Of a stretch of DNA of 64,000 nt, positions 12,022 to 61,109 are shown in pieces. Made by a program: the position numbers and the translations under genes. Below the pieces are notes generated by a model. That model made no database searches and was not told where the DNA came from. It was given only the letters and a program-made list of their open reading frames with translations. Numbering within the stretch: the first letter of the stretch is position 1; the number at the start of each line of letters is the position of its first letter. Location of the stretch: contig JAOUJM010000001.1 of assembly GCA_029883265.1 (NCBI GenBank), positions 10,511-74,510 on the forward strand. The letters run 5' to 3'. The DNA is from Gammaproteobacteria bacterium (GTDB taxonomy: Bacteria; Pseudomonadota; Gammaproteobacteria; S012-40).

Positions 12022-12023
12022 CT

Positions 12024-12985: not shown

Positions 12986-12986
12986 T

Positions 12987-14254: not shown

Positions 14255-14259
14255 GATAA

Positions 14260-22839: not shown

Positions 22840-25800
22840 CTGGCCATACCCATTATACGTTTTACCGCCATTACGAATAAGATTGCGACCTGGCTGGATT
22901 CCCCCAAATAGCGGCAACTCACCCAAAGCAGATTTCCAAGCATCCTCACCAGACACGCCTTTGCGAATAGACTTGGTGTAGTGTTTCTTAATCGCCTGTC
23001 TTTGTCGGTGGTCGTTTATTTTCAACTCATCAAGTTTGTTATCAAACTTTTTGGTCGACTGCTCAGCACTAATATATCCCGACGCAGCACTACTTAGTGC
23101 CTCAACAGCAACCGTCCGCCAGTCCGGCCGGTAGTCTTTCAGAGTCATGGAGTTAACGGCTATGCGGCCAACTCCAGTTAACGCACCACGTATCGCATCG
23201 CCTGCAACACCCGCGAAACCCCATCCATCAACTTTCCCAACGTTGCTTGGTAATGAAGATGTGACTCCACCCACTAATGCGCCAACCGCTACATTCGCGA
23301 ACAGATTTCCTGCTTGGCTATTGTATTTTTTACGCTGCTCAGTTGACTCCATGGCCATCGATAAGCCAGTCGATATAAGTGCTCGTCCCGCACCTTGTAG
23401 TGCACCCTTAACAACCCCTCCTCCTGTCTGATTCAATCCAGGTATTTGTGATATGATCGCGGCGATTGTCATTGATTTAACAATTTCTTCCTCGTCAATT
23501 TCATCGATGTAACCAACATTCTTCATGTATTTCTGTATGGCATACGAGGTCATTCCGGCAGCAATAATCGCCCCTTGCGGACCAAACACTATAAAAGCAG
23601 CAATAGATATGACAACAGAAGCAACATTCATCCAAAATATTTCAGACTTCGAGGGTTGATTCCTTGCAGGCATGCTTGGGTCCGTACTTCCAATTATCTC
23701 TCCCGGACTATAAGGTTTGAAGGTATCGGCATTGTTATGAATGTTTGTGACAACATTCGGAATGATTATGGATATTCCAGGTGTTAAATCAATATTGGTG
23801 ATATTGTTTGCGTTTGCAATCACATACCAAAGACTAGCATCTCCCCATACTTTACCTGCAATCGTTTCCAAAGTGTCACCTTGCACAACGAGGTATTCAC
23901 TGGCTGTATTCGCAGGATAGTTAGCACTAATGGCTTGATAATTTTGATCAAAGTCTGCTGAAATAACTCGATTCTTCCCTCTTTTTTCGTTATCTGCAAT
24001 CTCCTTGTTTGATAGTCGCGACTGGGCAAGTATTTGTGTATAGTCGGTTTCACCGGCACCTCGGTTGGATACTTCACCAATACCCCGTCCATTAAGATAG
24101 AAATAGCGGTTTACATCGTAATTTGTATTATCGATTTCATTACGCATAATGATTCGGCCGTCGGCATCAACCGTAAACTCAACTCGGCGCTCATATTTGG
24201 TGCCATGTAGTGGTGAGTTGGAATCATCCATTCTCATCAAGTGTCCATTTTGGTCATAATAAAGGTGAGAATACCCGTCAACAAAACCACGTGAATTTAC
24301 ATCCGACCTACCAACACTCTTTTTTGCAGAATCCCAATAGCTATAGAAATAGGAATTCCTGAAATTCTTTTGTTCCTCAATGCTCTTTACTTGATATGAG
24401 ACATTCTTTTCAGCTAGATCTAAACGATCTATTTCACGATAGGTGTAATCGTTATGAATTGTTGACTGCTCTTGCAAATATAGAAATTGATCCTCAGAAT
24501 TTTCCACTCTTTTACGATACTCAATACGAGAGATACGACTATCCAGATCATAGCTATAGTCGTATTGTTGTACAGACTGGGGTGGAATTGTGGTAACAAC
24601 AGTTTCTATATCTGGGTCATATAAATGAGAGGAGCTCGTTCGACCTAGCGCATCTAGCAAGCGCCGAGACACTAAATTTTTGTCTTCAACATTATCGACT
24701 ATTTTTCCGTGTTCAACAGTTTCTAAAATACCATTTTTTGTATATCCATATCGTTCGATCATAGTCGTATTCGCGCGAATATAGTTAACGCCAATTCGCT
24801 CACCTGCAAGATTATACAGGACTTCATATCCTTTATTTTCTGCAATTTCGACATTGCCAGACCCACCGACATCGAGTCTACCTTGTGTAATTCTAAATCG
24901 GTTCATTGAGTCGTAGTCATACCAATGTTCCTGGACGAAATCTCCAGTCGCTTCTCTATAGTCTGCTCCTCGATGAGCGTTAAGATCAATACCACCGTGG
25001 TACTTGGATACCACATGAATGCGATTTCCCATTTCGTCGTAATCATATGTAATATTGAAAAACGGATCGTTAATCTCGACAACACGATTGTAGTCATCAT
25101 ATATCGCTATCGTATATTGATAATCTTTTCCAATATCGGCATTTGCTCCCTCTTCGTAAACCGCTTCATAGGTTTTGTTACCATTGTTGTCGTAGCCATA
25201 CCGACTAACCAATCTAACACCATCATTTCCACCGTTAAAACCATAATCTACTTTTGCCTTTAATGACCCGTTATCATTGTAGTCAAACTCAATCACTTGA
25301 TCATAATCAGAATGATTAGTCATAAAATTGTTCAGACTATAGCGATATAAATCCATGTAGTCATAAGTAAAACCATGTAGCTGTGTATCAATATTATTCC
25401 ATGCGGCATCAGTTGCAATAATTGAAGCACCCGGATCCGTATTACCGATTTGATAGCGCAACTGCCCCCTTGCATCATAAAAATAGCGATAGCTACGGTT
25501 TCCGAGATCACGGTGGTAAACGAGCTTATTGAAATAGTCATATTGGTCTGTGATGGCTCGTGTTTCATAGTGCGGAATAATAATTTGAAGTCCAGCTTTC
25601 AAATCCGCATCAGTAATGTTATTTGCTTGACCTATCGAATTTGACATGTCTTCAACATTTAGTAAGCTATAGGCTATGGACGCCAAGGTATCGCCAGTTT
25701 GGACAATATAATTTAATTTTTCCCGACGTCCATAAAGGTAGACGGTTAATGTGTTTCCGACCACCAGTGTTTCGTCAACGACACCATTATCACTTCCAAT

Positions 25801-28800
25801 CCGGTTCGCTACCTCAGAGACTCTCAACAACTGTCTTGCAATAGATTCTAGCGTGTCACCGGACCTGACAATATACAAATTGCCAGAATAGGTTGTTTTG
25901 CTGAACCCCCCTTCCTGACCATTAAAGGTGAGATAGTTATAATCGTAACGAGTAACTTTATCACCATAGCTGACATGTTTTACCACCCGTCCTAATGCAT
26001 CGAAATAAGTCCGCTCTCGTCCACCGCCTTGGTCATGGAGAATTTCGTCATGGGAATTTGTATCCGGGTCAGTTAGATCGAGTGATGTATCAACTAAATT
26101 GATATGTGCAATTCGGTTACCATTTTCATCATATTCGTACTTTTCAACATTGTCGTATATATTGCTAGTTTCTTCAGTAATACCACCAAAAGAGCCTAAT
26201 ACATATTTTATAACATTATGTTTTTCTTTAGTAACATAGGTAATTTGGTTATTGTGATCAAACTGATATTTTGTCACGCGATCTGAGTCAGCTGTTAGCT
26301 TCTGACGTTTTTCAATTACATTACCAAAGCCGTCATAGACATAGGTCATTCCGCCCCCATCAGGGTTGAACTCCTGCTTGAGGCCATTTTGGTCATAAGA
26401 GAATCTTTTTAAATTGTTGCGTGCATCTGTAATTCCAGTGACATTACCCAGCTTGTCATAGTAATAAATCGCATTGGCATCCTGAATAGTTTGAAGCCGA
26501 CTGTAATAACTATTTCGAATTGGATCTTTTCGCGGATTACTTTTTCTAATTAGATTACCCATCTTGTCATATTCAAAGTAGGTATAGATATCTTTGCCAT
26601 CTTTTTCTTGGACAATTTCTCCAAAAGCGTTGTAGTAGTGAGATTTGTGAATTTGTACAAACTGGTCTGGATCGCTGTTATCACTAGAATTCACGCGACG
26701 ATGTGAGTAAAGTGACGCCTCACCTGTTAAATCGATGGACAATTGTCCCTGCAATACTTTGGCATTGGGATCATTTGGTTTATAGGTATAATTAATAACA
26801 TAGTCACCGGAATAGCTTCTTGGAACTGAATATCTTTGTCTCGTGCTGTCCGTTATAGTACGGAAAATTATTTCTTTGTATGTTTCACCGCCAGATTGTC
26901 TAATTGTTGCTGACAGTGTTCCTTGTGCTGGATCAACGTTTTCAAGATATACATCCCTGATATAATACCAAGATAAGCTAGAATCCATAAATGGAAATGA
27001 AGTAACGCGAGCCTCAATCGAATTATCACCATCATCCGAGCTAAAAGCGTTGCCATCTAAGCGCAAATGACTGCCTGGTTCTACTGATGGGTTATTAGAT
27101 AAATTCAGAATTACTTTCCCTGTATGAGGCGTTAAATCTGGGTTTGTTGCTTCATTGTCATAATGATATTCATATTTCAACTCAAACTGTCCTTCGAGTC
27201 CAGCATCGCCAAAATTCCAGGTTTGCCAGGAAGGATTAAAACCACTCGGTGTATCAAAATGTTCAACAGTAACCCACTCAGTTTCACCCACCCGTCTAAT
27301 CTCTACCGTTAGGGTGCCCAGAGACTTTGGTACATTCTTTAATATAATATCTCGACCATAGTACTGGTCGACAGCAACGTAATTATTCTGGCCGTCCACG
27401 TCACGAAAGCTTCCTGATACCGACGCAATGGTATAGCCATTCTTCTTGATTGTGGCACTATATGTCCTGGAACCAATATCATGTCCTTTCGGCGTACGAT
27501 AATGCGCGTCCTTACCGCCACTCCCATATGTGATAATTTTTTCTTCTTCATTATTCGGATTAAACTCTAGCACCAGACTACCTTCACCGTAGGAATTCTT
27601 GATTGAATCCACATTCGGATCTACGGCATCCCACCAAGTCTCCGCCCAGTCTTTACCTACAGCGTCATGAACACGTAGATGTAAACCACCATAGGGGGTA
27701 ACTTCAATATCAACTTTTCTATCACTTAATGTCTGGTATAGAGTTTGTGAAATCGACTGAGTGTGCGATGGTTCGTAAATATGAACAAGTTCGTTTCTTT
27801 CATTGTAAACGCTTGAACGATAAACAGAAGGAGCATTGTTATCAGTGATTGATGGCAGGATCTCTTTTGTCGCATTTCCGTTACGATCATAAGCATATTC
27901 CTTGACCACACCATCGCTGTTAGTTTTAATCAGGTTGCCGTTGCTGTCATATTCAAAAAACACTTGCCTGGCTTTGTTAGCTTCTGGACGTGATAGTTGA
28001 AGTGTATTTCTTTCGTATGCGCCCTGAAACGCTGCTTTTTCATAGCCATTGTATTCAGTGTATTTGTTCTCAAAGTAAGCATAGACAGAAGAATTTTTCT
28101 CTGTCCTTTTTCCACTGACTATGTTCCTATTTAGTCTATCATAAATGTATTCCGCGATATCTGTAAAAAGGTTTCCATCTGCATCATGTCTATTTAGGCT
28201 TTGGGTTCTAACATTACCAACAGCGTCGTAAGTATACTTGTTATTGGCACCATATTCTTCACTAACATTGGCATTGAAGTTTGCATCCCAATCCTCCAAC
28301 AACCTCCCATCAACTCCGTATGAGAATTTTTGTATTTGATCAAGGTTCGCAAGAGAGGGAGCACCATTAAGAGGAATATTTCTAGACTCACTGTCTTTCT
28401 CAGATGCAATATTTCGCGCCTCGATCACATTCCCATGTGCATCATATATATTTTTTGTAGATTTAAGACCTGATTTTTTTGTTAAGAGGCGACCTAAAAC
28501 ATCGAAACTATAATTTGTAGTATTTGACTCCGCGTCTACTATAGTGGTTATATTTCCCATTACGTCATAGACATATGCAGTAACACTATCTTCAAGCACT
28601 CCAGATTGCATGTTACCGTTACTAAAAGAGTATGTTTGAAAATTTTCCAAAGAATCCGTTTTCAGCCTATTTAATTTGTCGAATGAATAATTTTTAATTC
28701 TCGAATCAGAATATTGATTATCTCTTAAATCAACACTTTCTATCACAAAATTGTAACCACCATTCGTTGCAACGTTCACATTAGACAAATTAATCGAACC

Positions 28801-31800
28801 GCTTTTTATTACTCGATCGTTATCTTGCAGAATATATGATACCGTTGCTCTTCCACTAATGTTACCGACATCAAAAAATGCTTCGCCATTTTCATTCACC
28901 ATAACATCTACTGGTGTAGCAGTCGTTTCACCTTCTCGCAGCAGGCTCGCGCTCCAGACTCCACCAACATAATCAACGTCACTAATCTTCAAACGATTGA
29001 CATCAAATGCTGAGTATCCGGAATGCCAGCCTTGTGATCCAAGCATAAGATTCGTATCCACTCTTGCAATTTCAAAAGAGTCTGAATTGCTTATAAGTGT
29101 GATAACAAACTCTTTGATTTCACCAGTATTATATGAACGAAGAGGTATTGTCCCTTTGGTAAGGATTGTCGTAGTAGGAAAAGTTGTGTGATAAGTGCCA
29201 TCCGCTCTCGCAGCTCGAATAACGTAATAGTCGCCTTGTTTTAAGGTGGGAAGATTTATTTTTACGTACATCACAGAAGGCATCCCATCGCCTACCTGCC
29301 AAAAGTAAGGATAAAAGTAACCTTCCTCCAAATTGACTTGAACGATTCGATCCTCGTAACCGTTTGTTTCAAACTTCTCAAGCACTTCTAATAAAGAAGT
29401 ATTTTCATCCACCACATCTCTTAAACGTATCGAAGCCTTCTCTTCTCTAATCGCATTATTGAATGCATCGTAATTCCACTGGGTTGCATATCTTAGTGCA
29501 TCAACTGTGACTCTTTTATTACCTTTTTTATCATAATAATGAAAAATAGAATTTTCGTTTCCATCTACTTCTCTTACTAAGCGGCCTTTATGGTCATAGT
29601 ATTTCCGAATCACCGTTTCGCTGACATAATTTTCTTCCTTAATAAATTGATCATCACCAGGATCACCAATGGGCACCATTCTATCTTTTTCATAACGATG
29701 CTCTGCCGGAAGTTTTGTCTCCACAATTTGATTAAATGCATCATAACGATGTGTTAGTTGCATGTAGACATTTGAGACTGTAAATTTGTAAATCGAGTCT
29801 GCGAAGGTTGCAGTATCACGATATTTTCGCTCTTCAATAATATTACTCACAGAATCATAGGCAAACGTTTTCAAGAACCCTTCCGCATCGTGGGTGGCTA
29901 TCCGTCGTCCTAAATTATCATAATAATGCTGAGTTATGTTTAGATTTGCATCAATTTCACGGACCAAATTGCCAACAACATTGTATTTTTGTTCGATTGT
30001 GGTCGTTATACCCACGCTATCACCGGCACTCAATTTTATTCTATGGTTTTCCGTTTTAACCAGTAAGTTTAATTTGTTATAGGTATAGCTTCGACTTCGC
30101 TCTTCCTCCATGCCCGCTGCTTCTCGTGAAATGCGCCGGTTTCCGAATGCATCGTAACTGAACTCATTTGTTTGTCTTTCAAAACCTGTAGTTTCAAAAT
30201 CGATAAAAGGCAGCAAGAATCGCCCATCCATGCCTACCTCAATGGATTCACGATCGCTGATTCCACCTTTGTTAGCAATCGGCAAATACTCACTCGTCAA
30301 ATTTCCTTTGCGATCATAATTGTAGTGGTATTGATAACCAAGCGAGCGTTGGTAGTCTGGGTCTAGAACATTTGTTATAGGTTGATGACCTAGTAATTTT
30401 CCAATCTGATTTCCAAACGCATCATAATCATATTTTTCTTTTACCGATTCTGCATTGGTTAATTCAGTTTTGCGGTTCAGTTGATCGTAGTTCAGTAAGG
30501 TCTTTTGATCTTTATCAGTATTAATCTCCAAAAAGGTTTCGAGAATCTGACTTTCCGTGGTGTTGTCATCAACAGTATGAGCGGCCGCAATTGCGGTTGC
30601 ATATTGCATCGTACCCGTTAGATTACCCATTCCATCATAGGCTTTGGTTGTCACATAACGCTCAGGATCAACCACCAAAGTATTGCGATCAAGCTTATCG
30701 TAGTAAAAATAACTTATTGTGTCATAGGGTTCAGTAATTTTAGTAATATTACCAAACGCATCATAATCGGTTTTCTTCAATTCAAAAATATTGACGGTGC
30801 TACCAGCGCCTTCCTTAATCACTGATGCCGTCTTACGATTTAGCTGATCAAATGTCTGATACGTTGAATAGTAGTTTAGTAATGTATCTTTTTGATCCTG
30901 TGTTAACTGGATATAACTTAAGTTTGTAGTTGCCGTTAAACCGAGAATTAATTTACGTTCATTATCAGCCCAATCAGAATCAGTTTCTGTAAGCTCAATA
31001 CCGCGTGGATCAATAATCTTTGTCTGATTACCAAACGCGTCATAACCGAACTCACTTGAATAGGCCATTTGAGTTTGTGGATGTGCGGTATCAAGATTAG
31101 CTACAACACTGGCAGCCTCGAGATAAACTGTACGGCGTGTTAACAGACCACGCTGACTAAATTCTTGCGTGGTGCGTTGCAATTCATCACCACTGATATT
31201 GAGTCGCTTAACAATCGACGTTGTATTACCAAATGCATCGTAGCCATACTCCGTTACCAAGTCTCCATTCTCATCAGTTGAATGCGTCGTATACGACACA
31301 TTCTCAAGTATCTCTTGATATAATCGCCCGGCATCATCGTATACATAACGGGTACTGCGATCACCACTTGTTGTATCACTATTTCTATACAATAGGTTCG
31401 TACCACTAACTAGTAGTTGAATATCTCCCTCATTTCGAACATCAAATCGTTGTGTTGCCAAGGTGGCGACACCACTTTCTGGAAAACCTTCCGCTGTTGT
31501 ATCGTTAACAACCTGTAGTTGGTTAGCGTATTGAGTTACCCGAGATAGAAGATCACCTGTATATTCTCGTCCAGTGACATAACCCTCTGCATCGACACTG
31601 AAACTCACTCTACCTGCAGCGTCGTACTGTTGAAAACTAACACGGTCTTTACCACTCGTCGCCGTAACAAGTGGCGTTGTTTCAGTGACATCCACCACTT
31701 GTCTGTTCAGAGTATTAATACGCGTTTCTAAGTAGGTGTTCCACTCAGCGGCTGTAGGAGTAGAGTCTTGATAGGAATTAATAGTGAGTGCCTGATAGAA

Positions 31801-34800
31801 ACGCGAAGCAACAATTGCCTGTCCCAATGCATCGTAGCTTGTCTGATTAACATACCCCAAGGCGTCTATCGAGTAAATCTTGCGTCCGGCATTATCATAA
31901 AAATAATGATTAATCTGATCAGTAGACGAATTACCCGCTAGGTTTCCTCGAATAGTCGCCTCTTTATAATCCGCAAATGTAGTTTCTTTTGAGGCATAAC
32001 GCATGCTAAGAATAACTTGGCCACTAGCGTCATAACGTTTTTCATTGACGTAGCCCATGGCATCCACGCTATAACGCAAACGGTTTAGCTTGTCGTAAGC
32101 AAAGTGATCGCCCTGATCATTTGCAATAACATCGGGACGTTTCTGGAGAATTGTTTGCGCGAGTAATTCAGTGTTAGTGCTATTTATCGTAGCAAGATCG
32201 GTGGTAGATACTGAATTAGCCAGCCTAGATTGACGAATCACATTACCATTGTCGTCATACTCGTACACAGTATAGTTGCCCACTGCATTTACCGTTACAG
32301 TCAGGCGACCATCGTCATCAAAAACTGAATAATCAACGATATCTTTTGCAAGGTCCGCTGATGCCGAGACTAAACTCAGAATGTCGGCTTCCGTTGAATG
32401 ATCATCAAGAGTAGTTGTGGATATGGGCAAGGCATACTGAATTGTCTTAACCTTGTCCCCTCTGTCGTTATACACCGACTCAACCACTACTGCTAGCTGA
32501 CCTGTTGGAATAGGATCCAATTCCATGTATTCAAAATCAAGAACGTCAGCATTCTTGATGGAATAACGTAACCGATTAACATCATCATAAACATATCTCA
32601 TGGAGTGTGAGGTATCTTCCGCGCTCAAATCGGTAGCGAAAGCAACTTCTGAGGTTTCACTAAATGCACCAAGGGCCGGGGTAAATGGTAGAACTGTAGC
32701 AACACTTAACTCTAAACCATTACGCAATAGAACTAACTCATATGTAAAGCCGGATCGACCTCGCCTGTAACGCCCAAAATCAGAGTCAGCTGGAGAATCA
32801 TAAACCGTAGTTCCATTCTCTTTTAACAGAATCCGGTCGGTTGCTAAAGAAGTTACATTTGACCACATCACATAGTAACTTGAGGTTAGCGTTTGATCAT
32901 CAAAAGCATAATTCAATGTTAACGAGCCACTCAATCCGCTAACATCTACTCGTCTGTAACCCTCCACCTTACGCACCATATTATCCGCAGCATCATAATA
33001 ATATTTAGTAGTAATATTTAACCCACCCGGATCAACAATCGTATCTGTGCGTCGACCTAAGTGATCGTAAATGTATTGTGTTTCCCTGGCTTGTGTACTA
33101 TTGGCGCCTTCGGTAACCGTTAATTGACGACCTTCTGCATCATACGTATATTCGGTCCGCAGATTTAAACCACCATTGACGGCATCAACAACGACGGCTA
33201 ATACATTACCCGCACGATCATATTCGGTATCCGTATGTACACCGTTGGCATCAATGGTTGTAACTTTGCGACCCAGACCATCAAAGACATACTGGGTTTG
33301 AATATTCAGTCCAGTCTCATTGTCACCCGTAGTGTGAATCGTCATGGGATCAACGGTACGGGTCATCACCCGATTGGCGGCATCATATTCAAACTTGGAA
33401 TAGACACCATTTTTATCCACGGTGTGGGTTAATCTTCCCGCCTTGTCATACTCACTAGTTATTGTGTTATTGAGCATGTCAACCACTTTAACCAGCTTGC
33501 CATTGGTATCATAATGATACTCTGTACCATCATTTGAATTTGCTGCCGACTGATTGCCGTCAATGATTTTAATCGTTTGACCATTGCGATCCGTAATGGT
33601 CTGTGTCTGAATCAATTCAGGCGTCGTCACCGTCAAGGTATGCGTCGCATCATCATACGCATAAGTGGTTACATTCAAAAATGCATCGGTCATGGTCAAC
33701 ACTCGACCAAAGGCATCATAAGTTTGTGAACGTGATACGTCTAATGCATTCCTTGTTTGTACCTGTCGCCCCAGACGATCATATCCAAACTGAGTGATGT
33801 TGCTATTACCATCGGTTGATTGAATCACACGACCAAACGCGTCATAGGTTCGCTTGGTTTCGATTTCGAGTCCAGTATGACCCGCGACAGACACGTCTTT
33901 AAGGGTTGAGGTTGAAAGACCGCGACGATCATAAACATACGTGTCGCTACGACTCGTTTGCCCGGTAAGTGCTTGACTGACAGGTATCAGCGTAGGATCT
34001 TGCTGCTGCACCGATGAACTTATTTGACCGAACGCATTGTATGCATATTCGGTGCGTTGGCCTTCGCCATTGATGGCCCGCCATATGGCACCGCGAAGAT
34101 TGTAAGAAGACTGAGTTCGACTATCGACCATCGTATTTCCACTAAGCCTATCAAGAAAAGATGGAGTTACCAAGCCACCGGTCAACGTATTACTATTAGT
34201 GATGCGGGTGGAGTACGCAACGGTTTCTTTCACTTCACCGAATTGGTTATAGCTCAATTCGTTGACTTCGGCGACATTACTCAAAACCTTACCACTTTCA
34301 TCCAGAGTACCGCTGACGTCCTGTGCAGTAAAACGCAAACGACCATTATCATCATAATAGAACCAAGTTCGATGATCGTTTTGATCTTTGGTCGACGTTC
34401 TTAATCCTTGCTCGTTATAGGTATGAGTAACTCCATAGATTTCCCAAAGTAAATCTAATTCAGATTCACTAGGATTTATTAATGTGTCAAGCTTGGCGAT
34501 ACCTTGTGCATTAAGTTGCTCACCAATTAAGCGTCCTTGAATATCATAACGTAACAACGACGACCGCTGGTTATGAGTATAAGAAAAACGACCCGGCAAA
34601 TTCAGCATTTCCCCAACCGTTGGGGAAGCGGCACCCATGAGTTCCGCAAACGCCACAAAAGCATTGGCATTCGCTGTGTGATAAACCGATCGAACAATGC
34701 TTTCCCACGTATCACCTGATTGTACGGTATAACCATTTTCTGGGGCTAAACTGACATCAAGATCGGCAAACTCAAGCAGAGCATTGAGGTAGGAATCTGT

Positions 34801-37800
34801 TTGTCGAATCAGATTACCCACGTCATCGTACGCATAACTCGTCACTAACCCATCAACAGAATTAGTCACTGTTTCCATCTGATTTAATTCAGTGTAAGTC
34901 TTAACAATCGTTTTATCATTCACATGCGCCAATCGTTTCTGAATCAAACCATGCGCAACACTAACGGAATATGTATCTGGTGTTGCAACAACTTGCTGAT
35001 GTTCGCCTGTGGTAATGGATTGTATTTGCAGATCACGGCTCGTAAGATCATTATTCACAAACGTTAAATCAATCGTGTACGTATCCCGCTGATCAAACAA
35101 TGCATTAATCTGGTAGTCTTTAAAGTTTTCGCTGTCGACAACAATACTGTCAACCAGTACTCCATCGACGCGTACTTCCATGATCGGATATGTTCCATCG
35201 GCCGGAATGCCTTTCGCGCTTATGATTAATGCTTTGTTGTTGTAACGTATGCTTTCTGTCTCGTTGCCGTTTAGGTCATAGGAAAATGTACTTAGGTAGC
35301 CTTCTGCATCATGATTGGCAATCAACTGGCCTTTGGCATTGTAGAAATTGTAGCTATATTGATCTTTGGCTAAATTTCTTACGATAGCATCCTTCAATTG
35401 CTGTAAACTTGCACTGGCTAAATTCGCAGTACTGCGATTCGCATAGGCGCTGGTTTTCACCACTTGCCCTGCCGCATTATATTCTGTCTCGGTTAAGTAA
35501 CCTTCCGCATCAAGCGTCGCAACAAGTTGTCCATCATTGTTATAGAAAAACCGAGTGCGTCGATCGTTATTCGCATCTTCGTTTACATAAGTACCTGTTG
35601 TTGAATCGAGAAAATATTCTGCTCTGGGGTTATTCGGCATCCCAGTGATAACAAAAGGATTCGCATAAGCAATACTGTGAGTGAGTTGATTACTTCCATC
35701 ATAGAAATGTTGAGTAACTGCAACCCGTGTCACATCATTGTCATACGGCGTTAATTGCATCACCAATCGATCTGCATCGTCGTAGATAAAATAGTTGATT
35801 CGGTCGCTGGGGCTGCTATTGGGTTTGATTGCGCTTAACTCATAGAAATTGCTGCCTGCAACATAGGGATAATTGACGATCGACTGGAGGACTGGCGTCG
35901 AATATTCAATGGTTTTTATTACCCGTCCCGCATCGTCATAAACGGTTTCAGTCAACCCGCCTTCTTTATCCACCGTCGCCACTAAACGATTTGTAGCATC
36001 GTAGTAATTTTGGGAATAGTTGCCGGTTTGATCTATAGTCAGGCGCAGGTTGCCGGAGGAATCATACTTGTATTCAATTGTTCCCAACGGATTCAACTGA
36101 CCATCCTGCTGAGATTGTGATATGGCATAACCGTGTGAATCGTACACAGTGGTTGTCTGCAATTCATTTGCATCGGTTCGAACAATTTGATTTCCGACAT
36201 CATCATAGAAATAAGTCGTCGTATGATTCAGTGGTTTGTTTGATGCCAGTAATCGTCCTAATCCATCATAGGTGAACGTTGTAATAAAGTCTCTTGTTTC
36301 ACCCGTTGCTGCTGCTTGAGCCTCAATCGTTTCAATGAGAATGCCTTGGGCGTCATAAACAAAATGTGTGGTACTGGCAGTGGTAGTGACGCCCGCACCG
36401 GTCGTTGGATTAATCGAATCAAAGGTGGTCACCGTGCTTATATTGCCGCGGAAATCATACGTCGTATCACTGCGCTGTAAAATATTGCCCACGTTAACAA
36501 CCGAGTTGTAGGGCGCTTGATTCAATAATGTTGCGGATATAGGTGTAGCGGGATCTAAAGCACTGGTATCAATATGCCCCTTATAAAGGATTTGGCTGAT
36601 TTGTCTCCCTTGCGTATCATATACATATTCATTGACGACACCCTCGGAACTAACTGTAAATACCAAATGTTGCTCTGCGTCATAGATATAAAAACTACTT
36701 TGTGCATCTGAGGCACCGACACCACCGGTCCCAGTGTTATTGATATCCGCACCATCGGGGTCATTCACGCGATAACGGGTTTCGGAAATAATTTGATTAA
36801 CATCATTATATTCATAATCAACACGCACGCCTTCACTATCAATCATTGACGTACGATTGCCCTGATCGTCATAAGCAAAACGCGTTATATTGCCATTTTG
36901 ATCGGTAATGGACGTTATGTTATCGCTGCTGCGACCATCCTCATCATAACCATAAACCATCCGATTTTGATTTTGGTCATAGAACTCATGTAATCGATTC
37001 TGCTCATCAAGAAAATAATTCGTCTGTGTATTGCGAGTCAGATCCTCAACCATCGTCCGGGTGGATGTTGTTTCATTTTTCACATAATAGAAATTGAGTG
37101 GCATGATTAAATCCATGCCTTCGACGAGTGAGGTGACGCCCTGCGAGGCAAAATATTCCTGCAAACTCACAGCGAGTTGTTCGTCGCCATAAATCGCAAA
37201 CGCAATGTTTTCCCAAGTGTCACTCGCACTAACCGTGTGAAAGGGTGGGAGCGTAAACTCTTGATAAGTGGGTGAAAAGAAATTGAAGGTATGACTACTC
37301 AGATTATTTTCAATCAGGCCACCACCCACACTGCTCCAGTCATTCCATAGATAAAAGGCCTGTCCTTGCTCGTCCAGTGATAAATCGACCAGAACTTTAT
37401 TACCAGTTCCCACACCATCTTGAGCAACTTCGTCACTCCAGCCACGACCGGGAACATAGTATCTGCTTTTAACAACTGCGGCGCCCGACGCACCATCTTC
37501 CCAAAGTGCGACGATACGCCCTTGTTTGTCCTGCTCAATTCGGTAATCAAAATAATTCGAATTACCTCTGGATGTAGCGCCGAGTAATTTAGTGTCACTC
37601 AAACCGTTAACAGAATCAAAAACTCGCGTATAAAGATTGCCGCCATTCTTCCACGTCACCAACCATTGATCACCATCCAACTTGAAGATTTCTGGATTGA
37701 TATTCGTGTTATATAAAGTGCTTGAAATCGTATCGACAACAAAACCCGTTGACCAAGCAGCGCCGCCTTCTGAATACCATAGATTGATTTTTGGACTGGA

Positions 37801-40800
37801 GGCCTGTACAAAAACCATAAGTCGATTACCCAAGCCATCACTTTCTAACTTAATATTGTTGCCACCATCTAGTACACCAAAACCCGGAATACTTAACTTT
37901 TGTGATGCAGCCCATCCTGTAGCTACCGAATAGCGCATGGTGCGAACTGCTCGGGAAATTTCCCAAACCACTTCCAAACCACCATCGGGGAGAACAGTGG
38001 CATTAAAATCGGCGTTGTAGGTGCCACCCAGATAGGTTTCACCAATCCAACCCGATCCCAAAACATAACGATCGGCTTTAATGGGTTGTGGATTGGTGGA
38101 GGTATTACCTTCAGTCCATACTAGATAAACATCACCATTATGGCCTTGATGTAATTGAAATGGTTTCCATTCGGGAAAGCTCACCGGTGCTTTAACAGTG
38201 GGTGCGCTCCAACTATTCGTTGATGCATCATAAAACATCACCATTAAATTGCCGGAGGTATTGGCAAGATTCATTTCATAATATGCAACGGTAATATTGC
38301 CCGCGTCATCAATTAATACCTGGGGCGCTTCCATACGCGTGGACATTGCTTGCCCATCCACCAATGTTATTGCAGCTTGCCAATTTACATTAGTACCGCT
38401 TTGTTGATAGCGACTGATATATAGACTTTTAGATTGTGCAATACTTTGATCGGCCAAGACATCATTATCAATCCAAACTGCCACACCCTGCCCGCTGGTG
38501 TTAGACGCTACATCGATACTTTCTTCCGCTTGCGCCGATGTGCTATACACGGTGTTGGTTGCGACGGCGTGTTCCGCATTGCTTAGCCAACCAGGATAGA
38601 AATCACCGGCATAAACAATCTTTGTAGTCTGTAATTGTTCTGGAAGGGCGATAGCAGAGGCAACTTTATTTAAGTCGAGATTAATGCTTTTGTTTACAAA
38701 TTCACCACTAACTATTTCCGACCAACTCAGTAATCCGAAACCTAGCTCATTCACACTTAGATAAGGACCATAAATACTACTGTCACTTGCGGCCACCTGA
38801 CTCGGACTTGTCCAATTTGCACCATCAAGTGAATAACGCACGAAAAGCGTGCTCGGACCATTTTGTTCACGCCACACCAGTGCCATTCGACCTTGATCAT
38901 CTTGATGAACCTCATAATCAAAATAAAGATAATGACTGGTGAAGCTTTGCTGGGTCGCCACGGATGTTGTTGTCGACCAGCCCGTTGCTGAATCAAATCG
39001 CTTGGAAAACACTTCCTGGTTATCCTTCCAAAACAACACCCAATTGCCTTCCCCTTGATTGAGCAGTTTTAGATCCTTATTGCGATAGGTGCTTGAAGTT
39101 AATACGCTATCGATATTTTCAGTGGTTGTGGTATCACTCATCGCATCATAATACGATGTACCTAAAACACCGGCGTTGTACCACACCATGAGGCGGTTTC
39201 CTACAGTGTCGCTATCGTGGGCGATATTTGCATAGGTATTTGTAATGAACTGATTCTGGGTTGGTTGAACACCGACGCCTGCAATGTAGTCAGTAACTTT
39301 AACAAGATTGCCTCGCGACCAGGCAACGCTCGCATTACCCGACTCGGTGACATCTAATACCGGATACAAATTGAAAGTGGTACCATAGAGACGATCATTG
39401 ATAAATTGCGCGCCCGTCCAACCGGATCCCGCGACAAATCTATCCAAAACAATATCATTGTATTCCGGCGAGGGACTGTCTTGGTTGTACATCAGATAAA
39501 AAGCCCCGGTTCCACCGGTTTTCAGCTCAAAAAGCCGTTTTGAGTCGTAATTTGCAGCCATGTTCTGAATGGTATGTTGCTGCTCGGATTGCCACGTTTG
39601 TGTTGCCGCATCGTAAAAACGTGTCATCAAATAGTAATTACTAGACGTCAGCTCAGCACCATCATTCTCCTGCCACGCAATCATGGCATTACCTGCATCA
39701 TCAATGGCGACCTTAAGATCATAGAAAGTGACGGTGGGTGTGGTTTGTCCTATGGCAGGTTCGGCGCCAACAGTAATGCTTTTTGGTTCACCCCAGGAGC
39801 CACCAAACTCATTCATGGTGTAGTGTGAAACAAAAATGCTTTTGGAATAACCACGGCTGAAATCGCTCGTGGTGTTATCCTCGATCCATGCGGCAACACC
39901 AGAACCATTTGCACTCATAGCGACATGAGGATTGATCGCTGCGTATTGAGTGGTTTGGGGTAGTGTTTGCAAGGTTCCCGTAGACACAACTCGTTCACCC
40001 GGATAGGTGTAACGTGTCTCATTCCCCAACACATCGCTTACCGTTTGTAACTGACCGGCTGCATTATAGGTAAAAGAAATACTAACCCCATCACCACTGG
40101 TAATGTTACTGATTAAATGGCTCACATCATCCCGATAGGTATAAGTCGTTACATAACGTTGGCCATTAATCGTAGAATTGGTTGTACCGCTAATAGCACT
40201 GATGAGCGAATCGGGTGATAAATCAACAATCACCTGAGTTAAACGATTCAATGCATCATAAGTGTAATGGGTGCGTGCACGGGATTCGACAGCTTGAGTT
40301 TTAGTATCTCGAACCGTACTGGCGATTTTTGTTAAATTTCCTTTAGGGTCATAAACAAGATTAACTGTTTCGACAATACCTTCTGCTTGTAGTAGTTCAA
40401 TTTTTGAAACAAATTGACTGGGCGTGGATCCCCCACCGTAATTATATTTAATTTCATTCTGATCAGAATCAACAACACGACTAACACCCCAAATCGCGCT
40501 ACCATCTGTTGCGGTACCAATTTGCGTATATTCTTCGGTAAAGCTTGAGTTGCCATCCCAAAATGTCCAGTTAGTACCATCAAAAGTTAATATATCATGA
40601 GCGCCATCACCGTCAGTGCTAATGTAATGGTTGTTGGCTTGATCATAAGTAAAGAGTGCTTCAAATCCATCCTTATACGATTTGATCACACTGGAACCAT
40701 CTTGGTTGACCGTTCCCGACAAGCTATGAACACGACGATTTACTCCTAGTCGCCAGTTATCACCATTGTCATCATTTTTCTGACCCAGACTGTTATAAGT

Positions 40801-41065: not shown

Positions 41066-41521
41066 AGATGTTCAGTCGGATTGCACAAAAAAATGTTTGT
41101 TTGACTATTCTTTATACGATTTTAATTTTTTAGTCTATTTTTGCCTAGCCATATGAGATGTCATGTCAATTTAAAGCGCTGAAGATCAAGCTTTTTCAAA
41201 AAAACTCATAACGCTCTGAATGATTTTTTCCGGTGTATCAAGATTGTCTCCTGCTGCGAGAATAGTTTTACATAGGAGTACGAGCGGAGAATTTGGCTGC
41301 ATGGCTTCCGCTTTTAGCAATACTTCGCTGGCTTGATTGTCATTGCCTTCAAACAATGCCACCAAAGCCAAACTTGCGAGTGTTTCCGCACTTTGTCCAT
41401 CAAGTATTAATGCTTGCTGCAAGTTGCTTTTTGCTACTGGGATTTGATTACTGGCTATTTGCGCCCAGGCCAATGCAACCAGGTTCGCAGTGTCGTTTGG
41501 CATGAGGTTTGTGGGTTGAGC
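41066..41521. repeat. 456-bp direct repeat, copy A (3' third of the TPR gene + ~120 bp downstream sequence)
   Basis: Near-identical (only a handful of mismatches seen by eye) to 46981-47436. Divergence points read directly at both ends. Confidence 0.9.
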
Positions 41522-41545
41522 TGAGCTAAAAAACAAGTCGATCAT
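41186..41545 (-). pseudogene. Duplicated 3' fragment of the 362-aa TPR gene fused to unrelated upstream sequence
   Basis: The last ~110 aa (NLMPNDTANLVALAWAQIASNQI...SFFEKA) are near-identical to the C-terminus of 47101..48189. The N-terminal MIDLFFSSAQPT is unrelated. Confidence 0.8.
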
Positions 41546-46980: not shown

Positions 46981-47436
46981 AGATGTTTAGTCGGATTGCA
47001 CAAAAAAATGTTCGTTTGACTATTCTTTATACGATTTTAATTTTTTAGTCTATTTTTGCCTAGCCATATGAGATGTCATGTCAATTTAAAGCGCTGAAGA
47101 TCAAGCTTTTTCAAAAAAACTTATAACGCTCTGAATGATTTTTTCCGGTGTATCAAGATTGTCTCCTGCTGCGAGAATAGTTTTACATAGGAGTACGAGC
47201 GGAGAATTTGGCTGCATGGCTTCCGCTTTTAGCAATACTTCGCTGGCCTGATTGTCATTGCCTTCAAACAATGCCACCAAAGCCAAACTTGCGAGTGTTT
47301 CCGCACTTTGTCCATCAAGTATTAATGCTTGCTGCAAGTTGCTTTTTGCTACTGAGATTTGATTACTGGCTATTTGCGCCCAGGCCAATGCAACCAGGTT
47401 CGCAGTGTCGTTTGGCATGAGGTTTGTGGCCTGTTG
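46981..47436. repeat. 456-bp direct repeat, copy B (within and downstream of the intact TPR gene)
   Basis: See copy A. Confidence 0.9.
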
Positions 47437-48189
47437 CAAATAGTCACAAGCGGAGGAAAAATCCTGTTGCTGTAATGCAATCATGCCCAGCCCAGACAAG
47501 GACCGTGCATTTTTTGCATCACGCTTCAACGCATGATGGTAATATTGTTTGGCATGATTCAAATCAGATCGATCAAAACTTATCGTCCCCAACACTACAT
47601 GGGCTTCAAGCGAATCAGCATCTAATTCCAAAGCTGTTGTGGCATACTCTAAGGCCCTGTCTTGTTGTTGCGCATCCAAAGAAATAATCGCTAGTTGTCC
47701 GAGTGCTGTCACATCCTGAGGATGCCGCACAAGATATTTTTCGAGATTAGACTGCGCTTCATCAAGTTTATTGAGGTGATGCTGTGCTCGCGCAAGTACA
47801 ACCGCTACATTGGGTACTTGTTGAGACTGTAGATCAATTGCACGAAGCACCTCTTCGGCTTGCTCATACTCTCCTGTATATAAGTAGGCATAACCAAGAT
47901 TGTAACGCAGCACATCATTATCCACGCCTTGTCGCTGCATATCCAACAAAGTAGCAATCGCTTGCTTATAATCACCACTGGCGATGCTGAATGTTGCTAA
48001 ACGAAAAAGCAAACCCGGGTCAGCTCCTAAGCGTTGGATGGCAGATTTAATCTGTTGTTCTGCGTTATCAAACTGCGCAAGCTGCGTTTGTAAATCAATC
48101 ACACGATACAAAAGATGCAAATTGTTTTCGTCTTGTGACAAATAACCTAAAAACTTGTTGAGCTCTGTTTGCAGTTGATCCGTATCCAT
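47101..48189 (-). CDS. TPR-repeat protein (362 aa)
   Basis: Repeated 34-aa A/Y/L-rich helical pairs (e.g. YNLGYAYLYTGEYEQAEEVLRAI, AHVVLGTISFDRSDLNHAKQYYHHALKRD). Confidence 0.8.
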   Translation of the reverse strand: MDTDQLQTELNKFLGYLSQDENNLHLLYRVIDLQTQLAQFDNAEQQIKSAIQRLGADPGLLFRLATFSIASGDYKQAIATLLDMQRQGVDNDVLRYNLGYAYLYTGEYEQAEEVLRAIDLQSQQVPNVAVVLARAQHHLNKLDEAQSNLEKYLVRHPQDVTALGQLAIISLDAQQQDRALEYATTALELDADSLEAHVVLGTISFDRSDLNHAKQYYHHALKRDAKNARSLSGLGMIALQQQDFSSACDYLQQATNLMPNDTANLVALAWAQIASNQISVAKSNLQQALILDGQSAETLASLALVALFEGNDNQASEVLLKAEAMQPNSPLVLLCKTILAAGDNLDTPEKIIQSVISFFEKA

Positions 48190-48205
48190 GCAGGTTCCTG
48201 TTGGC

Positions 48206-48763
48206 TTAGTTTATCGTCTTATACGCGTTTTTTGCTAATTGAAGATTATTATTAACATCCTCATTGCTTTGATCTTGATTGAGCTGTGTTAACAATTCCT
48301 TGGCCTTGCCAAAATATAAATTATCGGCAGGTGCAGACTGCATCAGTCGATTCAAACACTCACGAGATTTCTCGAATTCTCCTTTTTGCGCATGGGCAAG
48401 TCCCTTATAAAACAGTGTCGGCGGACTCAAAGGCTCAACCTCTAACACTTCTGCCCATATTTGTAGCGCGTCATCAATCTGGTTTGAGTCAAAGTGTAAC
48501 ATACCGTACTCAAATTTTTCGATGGTTGCTTGATGACTGTTTTTTAGGTATTGCTGATAAAATTGTTTGGCTTTGTCATACAAATGCAATTGCGCGAACA
48601 ACTTTCCTCCCATAATTAATGCCTCGCTATTATCCGCATCGACTTTCAGCACTTGTTTGATTTTTAATAAAGCGTGATCGACCCGATTTTGCTCGATATC
48701 TAAACGTGCTAAGGCCACTAGCTCCCTATTATCAAATTCATTCAACATGGATTGAATATCCAT
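48206..48763 (-). CDS. Small TPR protein (185 aa), size/shape of a type-III-secretion class-II-like chaperone
   Basis: Three to four TPR units (ALIMGGKLFAQLHLYDKAKQFYQQYLK, LFYKGLAHAQKGEFEKSRECLNRL). Sits between the sigma factor and the large TPR gene. Confidence 0.6.
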   Translation of the reverse strand: MDIQSMLNEFDNRELVALARLDIEQNRVDHALLKIKQVLKVDADNSEALIMGGKLFAQLHLYDKAKQFYQQYLKNSHQATIEKFEYGMLHFDSNQIDDALQIWAEVLEVEPLSPPTLFYKGLAHAQKGEFEKSRECLNRLMQSAPADNLYFGKAKELLTQLNQDQSNEDVNNNLQLAKNAYKTIN

Positions 48764-48803
48764 TATTACTTCTCCTCAATTATTTTCAATTCATTCAAAC
48801 CTG

Positions 48804-49538
48804 TTAGTAACTAACATCCATTGTTTCCGAATGATCCATAAGTTTTCGTAGATTGTCCAAACCACTTTTGTGGAGTTGGGATACGCGCGCTTTTGATAAA
48901 CTCATTAACTTGGCTATGGACTCAAAGCTTAGATGATAAAAATAGTGACAGCGTAACACTTCTTGCTCGTTTTCTTTCAATCTGCCGACTAAATCCCGCA
49001 TTTGAGATTTCAAGCGCCGTAGTTCGTCACTGTTATATGGATTACCATCAATTGCCACTGGGTGATCTTCACTGTCAAGTATATAACTGATCGCAAAGTT
49101 TACCGTGGTCTCAACCATTCGCGCAAACACCGACTGTTTAAAAGCCTCCGAGTCCACAGAGGTAATCGATGTTACACGATCGGCCTGGGCCTGCTTGGCG
49201 AAACTATATTGTTTTCGTTTTTCAGTAAAGTTTTGAATACCATTAAGAATGGCTCCTTTGATTCGATAGCTTGCGAAGCTTGAAAATCGTATATTCTTCT
49301 GCCAATCAAAACGATCAATTGACTCAATAAGACCGACGGTTCCCAATTGAATATAATCGTCTAGGTCAATATCATGCTGATTCTGTTTTAAATAAACATG
49401 GGTTGCAGTTTGCCGGACCAAGCCGAGATAGTGACAGATAATTTTATCTCTAACTTTGCCGCATGAATCCGAATCAAGCTGCTGCCACAAATCCAGTTCA
49501 TCATTGATTATCGGTTCTTCCGCTGAAATTGTCATCAT
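48804..49538 (-). CDS. fliA: FliA-type (sigma-28 class) RNA polymerase sigma factor
   Basis: 244 aa. Region 2 (DDYIQLGTVGLIESIDRFD...FSSFASYRIKGAILNGI) and region 4 HTH (SFESIAKLMSLSKARVSQLHKSGLDNLRKL). Located in the flagellar cluster. Confidence 0.75.
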   Translation of the reverse strand: MMTISAEEPIINDELDLWQQLDSDSCGKVRDKIICHYLGLVRQTATHVYLKQNQHDIDLDDYIQLGTVGLIESIDRFDWQKNIRFSSFASYRIKGAILNGIQNFTEKRKQYSFAKQAQADRVTSITSVDSEAFKQSVFARMVETTVNFAISYILDSEDHPVAIDGNPYNSDELRRLKSQMRDLVGRLKENEQEVLRCHYFYHLSFESIAKLMSLSKARVSQLHKSGLDNLRKLMDHSETMDVSY

Positions 49539-49550
49539 CCATACAACAGC

Positions 49551-50300
49551 TTATAGAAAACTTCCCATTAATGCTTCAATCACCAAGTTCCAACCGTCAA
49601 TTAACACAAACATCATAATTTTGATGGGCAGAGAAATCATCATGGGCGGTACCATTAACATGCCCATGGACATTAGGATACTCGCCACCACCAAATCGAT
49701 AAGCAAAAAGGGCAAAAAAATAACAAATCCAATTTGAAAAGCGGTTTTTAATTCACTAATCATAAATGCCGGAATCAAAGTGAAATTACTTATTTCTTCT
49801 ACGGTGCCAGGCATTTCTTCTCCCGCCAAATCAATCATCAGTGCAATATCTTTTTCTCGCGATTGCTTAATCATAAATTCCCGGAGTGGTGACATTGCCA
49901 AATCAAAGGCGTGCCCCGGTTGCATTTGATCGTTCATGAAGGGCTGAAACGCTTGCTGGTTAATCTGTTTAAATACGGGCGCCATATTAAACACCGTCAG
50001 AAACAATGCAAGACTAATCAAAACCGTATTCGGTGGTGTTTGCTGCATACCAAACGCATGGCGCAATATGGCTAATACTACGATAATTCGCGTAAACGAT
50101 GTCATAACTACTAGAATGGCTGGTACCAGACTGAGTACAGTCAACCCCAATAATACTTTAAGCGCTGCCGCGATTTCAGTTTTGTCTTCAGCTTTATCAG
50201 CAAATGAAACACTAATGCCGGGCAACTCGATATCGGCCGCTTGAATTTGTCCTGACCAAACAAAAACCGCTAATCCTAGAAATAAAAGCAAAAACTTCAT
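49551..50300 (-). CDS. fliP: Flagellar export apparatus protein FliP
   Basis: 249 aa. Signal peptide + TM helices. Conserved ...TLIPAFMISELKTAFQIGFVIFLPFLLIDLVVASILMSMGMLMVPP... Confidence 0.9.
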   Translation of the reverse strand: MKFLLLFLGLAVFVWSGQIQAADIELPGISVSFADKAEDKTEIAAALKVLLGLTVLSLVPAILVVMTSFTRIIVVLAILRHAFGMQQTPPNTVLISLALFLTVFNMAPVFKQINQQAFQPFMNDQMQPGHAFDLAMSPLREFMIKQSREKDIALMIDLAGEEMPGTVEEISNFTLIPAFMISELKTAFQIGFVIFLPFLLIDLVVASILMSMGMLMVPPMMISLPIKIMMFVLIDGWNLVIEALMGSFL

Positions 50301-50314
50301 GCTTAGGTCTACCT

Positions 50315-50728
50315 TTATAATTCTTGTTTTGCACTTGCTATGGCTGTGACATTAACATGATCACCGGCTTGCGATAATAAAAATGTCTGCTGATCGATTT
50401 CAACCAAGAACACGGTGGTCTTGGTTGATAAACGCTGCGTCTCCAATAATCGTATCCGTCGCCCTCCTGGCGATTGTGCCGATGGTACAAAATTAAAACG
50501 GCGCATTATATAAATTGAAAATACCGCCAACGTAATCGCAATCACTAATCCTACAAACACTTTTGAAACCAATGCAACGGTTATAACCTCGTCTTGCTTA
50601 AAAGGAATTGCTGACGATTCTGTGCGTAACTCGATGCGCTCGTTCTTTTGCAGAGTGCCCGCGGGATCATCAGCAGCCAAACTTAACATCGGCATCAATA
50701 GCAGTAACAACAAAATAGTTTTTTTCAT
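50315..50728 (-). CDS. fliO: Flagellar biosynthesis protein FliO
   Basis: 137 aa, single TM (VFVGLVIAITLAVFSIYIM). C-terminal LLETQRLSTKTTVFLVEIDQQTFLL pattern. Immediately upstream of fliP. Confidence 0.7.
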   Translation of the reverse strand: MKKTILLLLLLMPMLSLAADDPAGTLQKNERIELRTESSAIPFKQDEVITVALVSKVFVGLVIAITLAVFSIYIMRRFNFVPSAQSPGGRRIRLLETQRLSTKTTVFLVEIDQQTFLLSQAGDHVNVTAIASAKQEL

Positions 50729-51027: not shown

Positions 51028-51051
51028 TTTACCATCCTCATTGATTTCTAA

Positions 51052-53515: not shown

Positions 53516-53527
53516 AAGTTTGCCTCC

Positions 53528-56745: not shown

Positions 56746-56778
56746 GGTTTGTACGCGCCTATTCTTTTTACCACAGGG

Positions 56779-58751: not shown

Positions 58752-58760
58752 GATAATCCT

Positions 58761-59512: not shown

Positions 59513-59514
59513 AA

Positions 59515-59910: not shown

Positions 59911-59959
59911 TTATTTTCCTTCTACTGTTGTTTCAAACATTGACAGAATCTGCCTGTGG

Positions 59960-61108: not shown

Positions 61109-61109
61109 G

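Follow-up and report, generated by a model that had tools for sequence, protein, structure and literature searches.

In type VI secretion system (T6SS) effectors of the prePAAR kind such as Tse6, transmembrane helices have been proposed to insert into the inner membrane of the victim and carry a cytoplasm-acting toxin across. These helices are N-terminal, flank the PAAR domain and require Eag chaperones. In pore-forming colicins and the T domain of diphtheria toxin, a hydrophobic helical hairpin of about 35 residues is buried and accompanied by amphipathic helices, and the translocators YopB and IpaB combine type III export with tetratricopeptide repeat (TPR) chaperones. Here we describe a membrane-active-looking segment in front of the toxin tip of a giant YD-repeat/LysM protein of 6384 amino acids (aa), which is encoded in a 64,000-nucleotide stretch of DNA (the window) from a Gammaproteobacteria bacterium (contig JAOUJM010000001.1). 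Sequence comparison identifies this segment as the core of a conserved, previously undescribed pre-toxin module of giant YD-repeat/LysM polymorphic toxins, which may serve the entry of toxin tips into victim cells.

For Tde1, a T6SS DNase effector of Agrobacterium tumefaciens, a glycine zipper is experimentally required for membrane permeabilisation and for delivery into prey (PMC10240207). An earlier sequence-only reading of the window, which held that glycine zippers serve entry in other toxins, thus has a precedent. Like our module, Tde1 carries small-xxx-small runs beside a cytoplasm-acting toxin domain, and its zipper region is short, N-terminal, adaptor-binding and T6SS-delivered (PMC10240207). 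In contrast, the module comprises about 200-270 aa, is located C-terminal to a YD-repeat body and a LysM domain and involves a true hydrophobic stretch and repeated hairpins. There was no sequence relationship between Tde1 and the module, and no family match in Pfam and NCBIfam scans.

The module also differs from the prePAAR effectors, since it stands directly before the toxin, lacks a PAAR domain and is linked to a flagellum-type machinery and not to a T6SS. With the colicin-type hairpin domains and the YopB/IpaB translocators it shares the architecture only (TPR genes flank the toxin gene in the window). Unlike these proteins, it has its cargo fused in cis and carries glycine/alanine (Gly/Ala) repeats, and neither a sequence match nor a fold match was obtained. 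Its location between scaffold and hypervariable tip and its exchange with orphan cassettes resemble the CdiA-CT entry domain and the PT-VENN, PT-TG and PT-HINT domains (PMC3482391). However, the entry domains of CdiA are soluble and work by hijacking particular proteins of the inner membrane. The VENN motif is absent from the window protein, neither the window module nor the corresponding region of its relatives gave matches to PT-TG, PT-HINT or PT-VENN, and the polymorphic-toxin survey of Zhang et al. 2012 does not describe the module (PMC3482391).

The giant protein itself resembles canonical Rhs/YD toxins (T6SS Rhs, TcC) in its YD/RHS repeats, its DUF6531-type start, its polymorphic tip with an immunity gene and its orphan cassettes. 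In contrast to these toxins, it has no PAAR/VgrG link, no C-terminal Rhs core and no DPxGL autoproteolysis motif, is about four times as long as usual, carries LysM and the module before the tip and shows a flagellar-type linkage.

The module in the window protein and in its relatives

The toxin gene (positions 21847..41001 of the window, minus strand) has a DUF6531-type N-terminal start and encodes many RHS/YD repeats and three LysM domains. Its segment at 23146-23640 (minus strand), which corresponds to aa 5788-5952 of the 6384-aa open reading frame (ORF), had been put forward in the sequence-only reading as candidate translocation domain. The module reaches slightly further, to about aa 5978 (nucleotide 23068), and is the only membrane-active-looking part of the entire protein. 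When the protein was scanned for Kyte-Doolittle (KD) hydrophobicity over 19 residues, aa 5786-5818 (SEIFWMNVASVVISIAAFIVFGPQGAIIAAGMT) turned out to be the sole stretch above 1.5 (maximum 2.34), and the hydrophobic stretch of 35 residues reported before was thereby borne out. It forms a predicted helical hairpin (aa 5786-5828; 23518..23646, minus strand) with a break at G5807-P5808, and AlphaFold2 predicted helices at 5785-5806 and 5808-5828 with a predicted local distance difference test (pLDDT) score of 75-80.

Three degenerate helix-loop-helix Gly/Ala 'zipper' repeats make up the remainder of the module (23068..23517, minus strand). They were assigned from the family hidden Markov model (HMM), the family consensus and amphipathicity to approximately aa 5810-5855, 5862-5917 and 5931-5978, and their register relative to the family repeats is ambiguous. 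All glycine-rich strings quoted in the sequence-only reading were located (GGGVVKGALQGAGRALISTG at 5860-5879, NVAVGALVGGV at 5903-5913 and GWGFAGVAGDAIRGALTGVG at 5926-5945). One of the two GxxxGxxxG motifs in the 6384 residues lies in the segment (G5862-G5866-G5870), and by its ladder counts the segment belongs to the top 1.3% when all windows of equal size along the protein are compared. The module is separated from the tip junction by a charged helical spacer (aa 5979-6054; 22840..23067, minus strand).

Upstream, the module is directly preceded by the last LysM domain (Pfam LysM; aa 5703-5748; 23758..23895, minus strand) and a conserved linker (NADTFKPYSPGEIIGSTDPSMP; aa 5757-5778; 23668..23733, minus strand), in which the alignment shows invariant T, G and P columns. 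LysM and linker together (aa 5675-5784) share 36-54% identity with 12 relatives. The family motif of the linker reads DTFKPY(D/N)P..xG.T.P.LP and is followed by poly-Pro and often by a cysteine. Within the region, conservation is highest in this connection from LysM to the hydrophobic stretch, also in the relatives, and the connection may be a processing or docking site. A cysteine is found within 14 residues before the hydrophobic stretch in 29 of 64 relatives. The window copy lacks it and has S where the family motif has D/N.

When the query was lengthened upstream so that it included the last YD repeats and LysM, 17 partial proteins were matched. They come from Microbulbifer, Hahella, Pigmentiphaga, Rhodanobacter and metagenomes, and all of them share the same course after LysM. 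Here, LysM is followed by a Pro-rich linker, which leads into a hydrophobic stretch of about 34 residues; two or three Gly/Ala repeats and an end motif (DAFGNALGN) come next, and the whole adds up to about 270 residues. The repeat unit of about 42 residues consists of a first helix (IGGAxGSxAsQ), a loop (GxQxxFSW) and a second helix (xxVAxsAxxaGVxaGvG). For the end motif, the window spacer offers a tentative match at aa 6020-6028 (DAWKSALGE).

Relatives of LysM and linker are encoded at at least 575 genome loci (confirmed among at least 599 matched stretches) of alpha-, beta- and gamma-proteobacteria, and our module statistics for genome loci are based on the 79 loci that were kept. In 72 of these 79 loci, a hydrophobic stretch (KD 2.0-3.1) was found 64-80 residues after the WY motif of LysM. 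In the window protein it starts at +61 (KD 2.34). The 200 residues after the stretch contain 30-55% Gly plus Ala in the loci kept. In the family, the mean number of K and R residues was 0.86 in the N-terminal flank of the stretch (LysM side) and 0.11 in the C-terminal flank (p 1.4e-7), and the first charged residue follows at a median of 43 residues past the stretch.

A family HMM built from the homologous region of 64 relatives, with the window protein excluded, matched window aa 5784-6053 with 38.0 bits (E 6.8e-14, one target), and the best of 2000 shuffles reached 9.6 bits. Since this score is above those of all shuffles, the window copy is a real, though very divergent, family member. The HMM gave two overlapping domain matches on this copy, which show an internal repeat. 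BLASTP alone showed a marginal similarity of the window module to its relatives (37% over 91 aa, E 0.003). When alignment A2 was used for a profile search, low-complexity word matches dominated, and only two proteins were gained.

Searches for described families or folds gave no assignment. There were no relevant matches of the segment in Pfam (E up to 10) or NCBIfam (E up to 1; PT-TG, PT-HINT and PT-VENN included), no Pfam or NCBIfam family for the segment when 15 family members were scanned (E up to 5), and no match when aa 5770-5975 were queried against 5.8 billion proteins in a word-indexed search. A plant LRR repeat protein, the lone phmmer match among 1.84 billion representatives, was rejected as an artefact of repeats and composition. 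Profile matches in the PDB to a phage 'putative tail assembly protein' and to Gp53 (E 0.009 and 0.02) concern hydrophobic Gly-rich parts and were treated as composition-driven.

Toxin tips and immunity genes

For the 68 complete members of the family, the fraction of alignable pairs was 0.95-0.98 in LysM and about 0.67 in the module. It dropped to 0.34 at +250, to 0.14 at +300 and to at most 0.03 beyond +350. The last 250 residues of these members fall into 57 clusters, and similarity stops about 300 residues after LysM. These data agree with the earlier proposal that the segment is placed before a swappable tip, and they show the module conserved among homologs with different tips.

Pfam recognised tips of the EC869-like DNase type, two deaminase families, RNase A, LHH/WHH/HNH nucleases, EndoU, RES, non-specific endonuclease and colicin DNase, as well as one glucosaminidase and one lipase. 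PT-TG and PT-HINT occurred once each among 64 tips. Of 62 ORFs that come after the toxin gene, about 12 start with a signal- or membrane-like N-terminus and about 50 do not. Since the tips are hypervariable and the downstream ORFs mostly signal-less, these proteins are true polymorphic toxins and most tips must reach the cytoplasm of the victim. The prevalence of nuclease-, deaminase- and NADase-type tips followed by signal-less genes therefore requires that something carries the tips across the inner membrane of the target.

Exchange of the toxin tip by an IS66-family transposon

The window protein has exchanged its tip. An IS66-family transposon of 4107 bp with passenger genes (18733..22839) is defined by inverted repeats that begin GTAAGCG and by an 8-bp target duplication (CTGGCCAT at 18725-18732 and 22840-22847). 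Exact IS66-type terminal repeats (GTAAGCGTCCnAAACTC) are present four times in the window, whereas chance would give 0.01. Within the element lie tnpA, tnpB and tnpC of IS66 (18817..21044, plus strand; Pfam), an ankyrin ORF with a signal sequence and the final 330 codons of the giant ORF. Translation of the element's right inverted repeat gives VSVQNSAPG, in frame with Q6054, the residue at which the host-encoded part of the giant protein ends. The segment is thus encoded by the host upstream of the transposon, just as the sequence-only reading had stated.

The transposon-borne tip (aa 6055-6384; 21850..22839, minus strand) is a lipase/phospholipase-like alpha/beta hydrolase with GHSLGG. The ankyrin-repeat protein (21095..21823, minus strand) has an N-terminal signal or lipoprotein-like sequence and is presumed to be the periplasmic immunity protein of the lipase tip. 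No ORF is located between the toxin gene and the ankyrin gene in the window. Tip and ankyrin partner are both homologous to the native tips and partners of two relatives (P0010, P0018). On the other side of the element, we found the displaced ancestral tip (EVDLPLTL...; 17834..18724, minus strand), which has a TNT (NAD+ glycohydrolase) domain at its end. Excision of the element together with one copy of the duplication fuses Q6054 in frame to this TNT ORF, and one module has therefore preceded two tips, the ancestral TNT tip, an NADase that acts in the cytoplasm, and the present lipase-like tip. A 97-aa ORF without signal peptide after the TNT tip (17560..17853, minus strand) is presumed to encode the cytoplasmic immunity protein of that tip. 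Thus, the IS66 insertion replaced the ancestral TNT tip with the lipase-like tip. The insertion point lies 76 residues beyond the module core, at the natural boundary between module and tip. The earlier claim that the segment is common to any installed tip holds for the two tips in the window. Orphan cassettes elsewhere, in contrast, bring module copies of their own.

A second IS66-family element is located at 6847-10500. Its repeat likewise reads through in frame to a lysozyme-like ORF, which is followed by a signal-bearing ORF, and no target duplication was found in the flanks examined. In both elements, the outer inverted repeat reads VSVQNSAP... into the toxin gene, and both cargo immunity ORFs are signal-bearing. 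Since the outer repeat is open into the toxin gene, in-frame insertion installs a new toxin tip. An earlier insertion may have left behind the degenerate fifth IS66-type terminal repeat with 2 mismatches (41969-41985) that lies upstream of the toxin gene. In the plasmid collection, nothing closely matched the whole transposon, and the inverted-repeat pattern of the element was not present in the first 84 related loci.

The giant host protein and its linkage to a flagellum-type cluster

RHS/YD repeats were matched in the 6384-aa protein (PF05593, E 1e-71 and 5e-47; TIGR01643 also matches). It has no signal peptide, no PAAR match in the Pfam scan and no AARxGD motif. An NCBIfam scan matched no Rhs-core model in its C-terminal half, and DPxG[LI] is found at aa 2657 and 3331 only, far from the C-terminus. 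The idea of a shell with an encapsulated toxin, which formed part of the sequence-only reading, is not supported, since the C-terminal Rhs core and DPxGL are lacking and a LysM domain stands between repeats and module.

Upstream of the toxin gene and on the same (minus) strand, there is a cluster for a flagellum-type type III secretion apparatus and basal body (47101..63964). It encodes FlgF/G, FlgA, H, I, B and C, FliE, F, H and I, FlgD, an FlgE-like protein and FliN, O and P, together with an FliA-like sigma factor and two TPR proteins. Flagellin, FlgK/L and FliD were not seen in the part of the cluster that is covered by the window. A small TPR protein is encoded immediately upstream of the giant toxin gene (41186..41545, minus strand). 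Between the flagellar-type genes and the toxin gene we observed a 424-aa ORF (44815-46089) with DUF6973 and a weak Wnt-family match, and the two ORFs that follow it (43877-44809 and 42370-43845) had no family matches.

The toxin gene is embedded in, or comes right after, a flagellum-type operon with an FliA-like sigma factor and TPR genes at its end, and this arrangement recurs in distant taxa and in metagenomes. The same flagellar-type genes adjoin the relative in Pigmentiphaga (L002), and fliQ and a homologous TPR gene come after the relative P0018 (L004). Flagellar-type markers were found within 10 kb downstream of the module in about 20 of 79 genome loci, and flagellar or TPR markers upstream of the N-terminus in 11 of the 31 metagenome loci for which at least 3 kb of upstream sequence are present. 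At three of the loci (L134, L106, L131), a same-strand series FliI-FlgD-FlgE-FliP-sigma ends at the toxin start, and L134 adds FliH, FliN and TPR.

The N-terminus of the window protein (aa 1-160, 40522-41001) is of the MVAIxxGxGxGL type and replaces a PAAR or T6SS-loading start. Across the family, the pattern MVAIxxGxGxGLxNTS...VNxxTGNL.Q.QDE...RTYNS is kept from residue 1 onwards, as found in 302 metagenome stretches with a scan that used a three-sequence alignment. This conserved extreme N-terminus may be an export signal, and it bears a loose, putative likeness to the SGL...L..IGNN with which flagellar rod and hook proteins begin. Going by the conserved operon linkage only, the giant protein is probably exported by the co-encoded flagellum-type type III apparatus. 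No relevant papers were found in the literature that link a flagellar-type system to YD/LysM toxins. If the assumption of such an export is true, it would constitute an undescribed route for polymorphic toxins.

Orphan cassettes

Downstream of the toxin gene, the window contains an array of short orphan toxin/immunity ORFs (9000-17500), among them an LHH nuclease (12987-13433) and an ORF with a nucleotidyltransferase fold (12024-12419). Two further orphans (15290-15670, 16268-16756) resemble by eye the C-terminal tips of two relatives (P0011, P0019). None of the window orphans carries the membrane module, which is present in a single copy in the six-frame translation of the window. The idea that these cassettes share the module as a recombination handle was rejected, since there was no similarity. 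A motif of about 14-22 nucleotides (TTGTTTGGAACTAC) occurs in five copies at the cassette boundaries (11583-11604, 12526-12547, 13531-13552, 14663-14684 and 17550-17571), and a related sequence (GTAGTTCC) abuts the end of the second transposon at about 10502. The TTGTTTGGAACTAC motif may be a recombination or regulatory site. Elsewhere in the family, tandem ORFs form orphan module-plus-tip cassettes with their own module copies (L076, L051, L048, L053).

Proposed role of the module and alternative explanations

We consider it possible, at a probability of roughly 0.45, that the module inserts into the membrane of the victim and serves the entry of the toxin tip. Its position, its conservation and the mostly cytoplasm-acting tips make this role plausible. 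The presence of separate module copies in the orphan cassettes of L076, L051 and L048 also speaks in its favour, and the charged N-terminal and uncharged C-terminal flanks of the hydrophobic stretch fit an insertion from the periplasmic side with the C-terminal side leading. In such a process, the C-terminal end of the toxin would arrive in the periplasm of the victim, where LysM would grip the peptidoglycan. The linker would span the distance to the inner membrane and the hydrophobic hairpin would go in from outside. The charged N-terminal flank would remain outside, and the uncharged Gly/Ala helices would trail the hairpin into the bilayer and pack by their small-residue faces. The bilayer would be perturbed or opened and the unfolded tip would pass into the cytoplasm. 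Envelope-acting tips, such as the present lipase, would merely be held at the membrane.

Several observations weigh against this role. Although the quoted GxxxG and AxxxG ladders are all present, they are not enriched beyond composition. The segment contains 5 GxxxG motifs compared with 3.3 +/- 1.6 in composition-preserving shuffles (p ~0.21), and 25 [GAS]xxx[GAS] motifs compared with 20.3 +/- 2.9 (p ~0.08). Its ladders follow from a Gly/Ala-rich composition (15% G and 13% A, versus 8% and 7% in the whole protein). Membrane-span hydrophobicity is reached by the first helix only. The zipper helices of the window copy are amphipathic, with K, Q, R or D lining one of their faces, and remain below that grade, and the helix at 5863-5884, which contains the G5862 zipper, has a mean Eisenberg hydrophobicity of 0.32, bears K, Q and R and stays below a KD of 1.0. 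The transmembrane character proposed earlier would thus apply to the first helix, and the label 'glycine zipper' is only loosely earned. Moreover, the window copy is an outlier of the family (38 bits versus 140-250 bits for the training members), degenerate and more highly charged. AlphaFold2 models of the window module and of a typical member were all helical without confident packing (pLDDT 58 and 56), and Foldseek searches of the PDB with the typical-member model gave no usable fold match (best E not below 3.5). Two relatives from Roseateles and Pelomonas (L035, L052) lack the hydrophobic stretch and most repeats and have kept the end motif and the tip; the tip of L052 is homologous to one found elsewhere with the module. 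Finally, the module scores of loci with and without a signal peptide in the next ORF were similar (median 215 versus 199 bits, p 0.29). Degradation of the module where the tip acts in the periplasm was rejected on the basis of these medians. Since the module is equally kept before periplasm-acting tips, cytoplasmic entry is not its only role. Overall, the idea of a translocation domain draws on position, conservation and tip type, and it is weakened by the ladder statistics, the periplasm-acting tips and the two relatives without the stretch.

The main rival to membrane entry is a role in the producer cell. Here, the module would arrest export, anchor the protein or be recognised by the flagellum-type export gate, and it would hold tip and immunity protein until contact, similar to the export pause of CdiA. 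This possibility gains from the operon that the toxin gene shares with the export apparatus, from the TPR proteins kept beside it (the chaperone class of membrane-active type III translocators) and from the retention of the module whatever compartment the tip acts in. However, the basic residues are on the LysM side, and according to the positive-inside rule LysM would be cytoplasmic with nothing to bind. There is also no sign of arrest in the sequence and some family members have no flagellar genes within 10 kb, so that we consider a producer-side role unlikely. A hydrophobic hairpin with amphipathic small-residue helices would also suit an autonomous pore-forming toxin, which depolarises the membrane in the manner of Tse5-CT, CdzC/D, EsxX and ionophoric CdiA-CTs and for which the enzymatic tip is a second warhead. 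Glycine-zipper toxins of this kind are documented in the literature, and the PDB profile matches named above, weak as they are, can be quoted in this context. A pore would, however, need a constant immunity gene, whereas the genes after the toxin vary by locus with the tip, none is kept with the module, and the window has nothing between the toxin gene and the ankyrin gene. This makes an autonomous pore quite improbable.

The biased composition, the glycine ladders at the frequency expected from it, the low confidence of structure prediction and the inclusion of the region in orphan cassettes would all be compatible with a low-complexity flexible spacer, which lacks a membrane function and is kept as a homology handle for tip exchange. 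We give this explanation a slim chance, since the W column of the Qxx(F)SW loops never varies and the F, Q and G columns hardly do, the HMM score beats shuffles of the same composition and alpha-, beta- and gamma-proteobacteria keep a stretch of KD 2.0-3.1 at a constant distance from LysM. Furthermore, a protein identity of 20-40% is far too low for DNA recombination between taxa. It would be very improbable, finally, that linker and Gly/Ala-rich helix constitute a cleavage site, autocatalytic or for an intramembrane protease, which releases the tip in place of the absent Rhs DPxGL. The lack of a C-terminal Rhs core and of DPxGL would leave room for such a site, the DTFKPY(D/N)P linker is the best-conserved piece of the region, and the known releasing peptidase is mostly absent (PT-HINT in 1 of 64 tips). 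However, no associated protease motif or gene was recognisable, the window motif has S for D/N, and about 200 residues of repeats would be left unexplained.

Implications

Returning to membrane entry as the preferred role, the interpretation of the module as a new, widespread domain that stands before the toxin and serves its delivery or entry is partly supported by our data. The toxin family in which it occurs is unstudied, and the linkage of this family to a secretion system is unusual. A more far-reaching scheme, which we regard as doubtful, would make the giant YD-repeat/LysM proteins flagellum-derived type III cargo for interbacterial killing, with the module as built-in translocon for interchangeable tips and IS66-type insertions as the means by which tips are installed. 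For most delivery systems, little is understood of the way in which polymorphic toxins cross the inner membrane of the victim, and the module is a compact, conserved and widespread candidate for this step. Since more than 50 different cargo domains are fused to it in cis, the module lends itself to direct tests and could find use as a tag for protein delivery. If confirmed, a flagellum-linked toxin family with a tip-swapping transposon would widen the repertoire of bacterial weapons and the routes by which they diversify.

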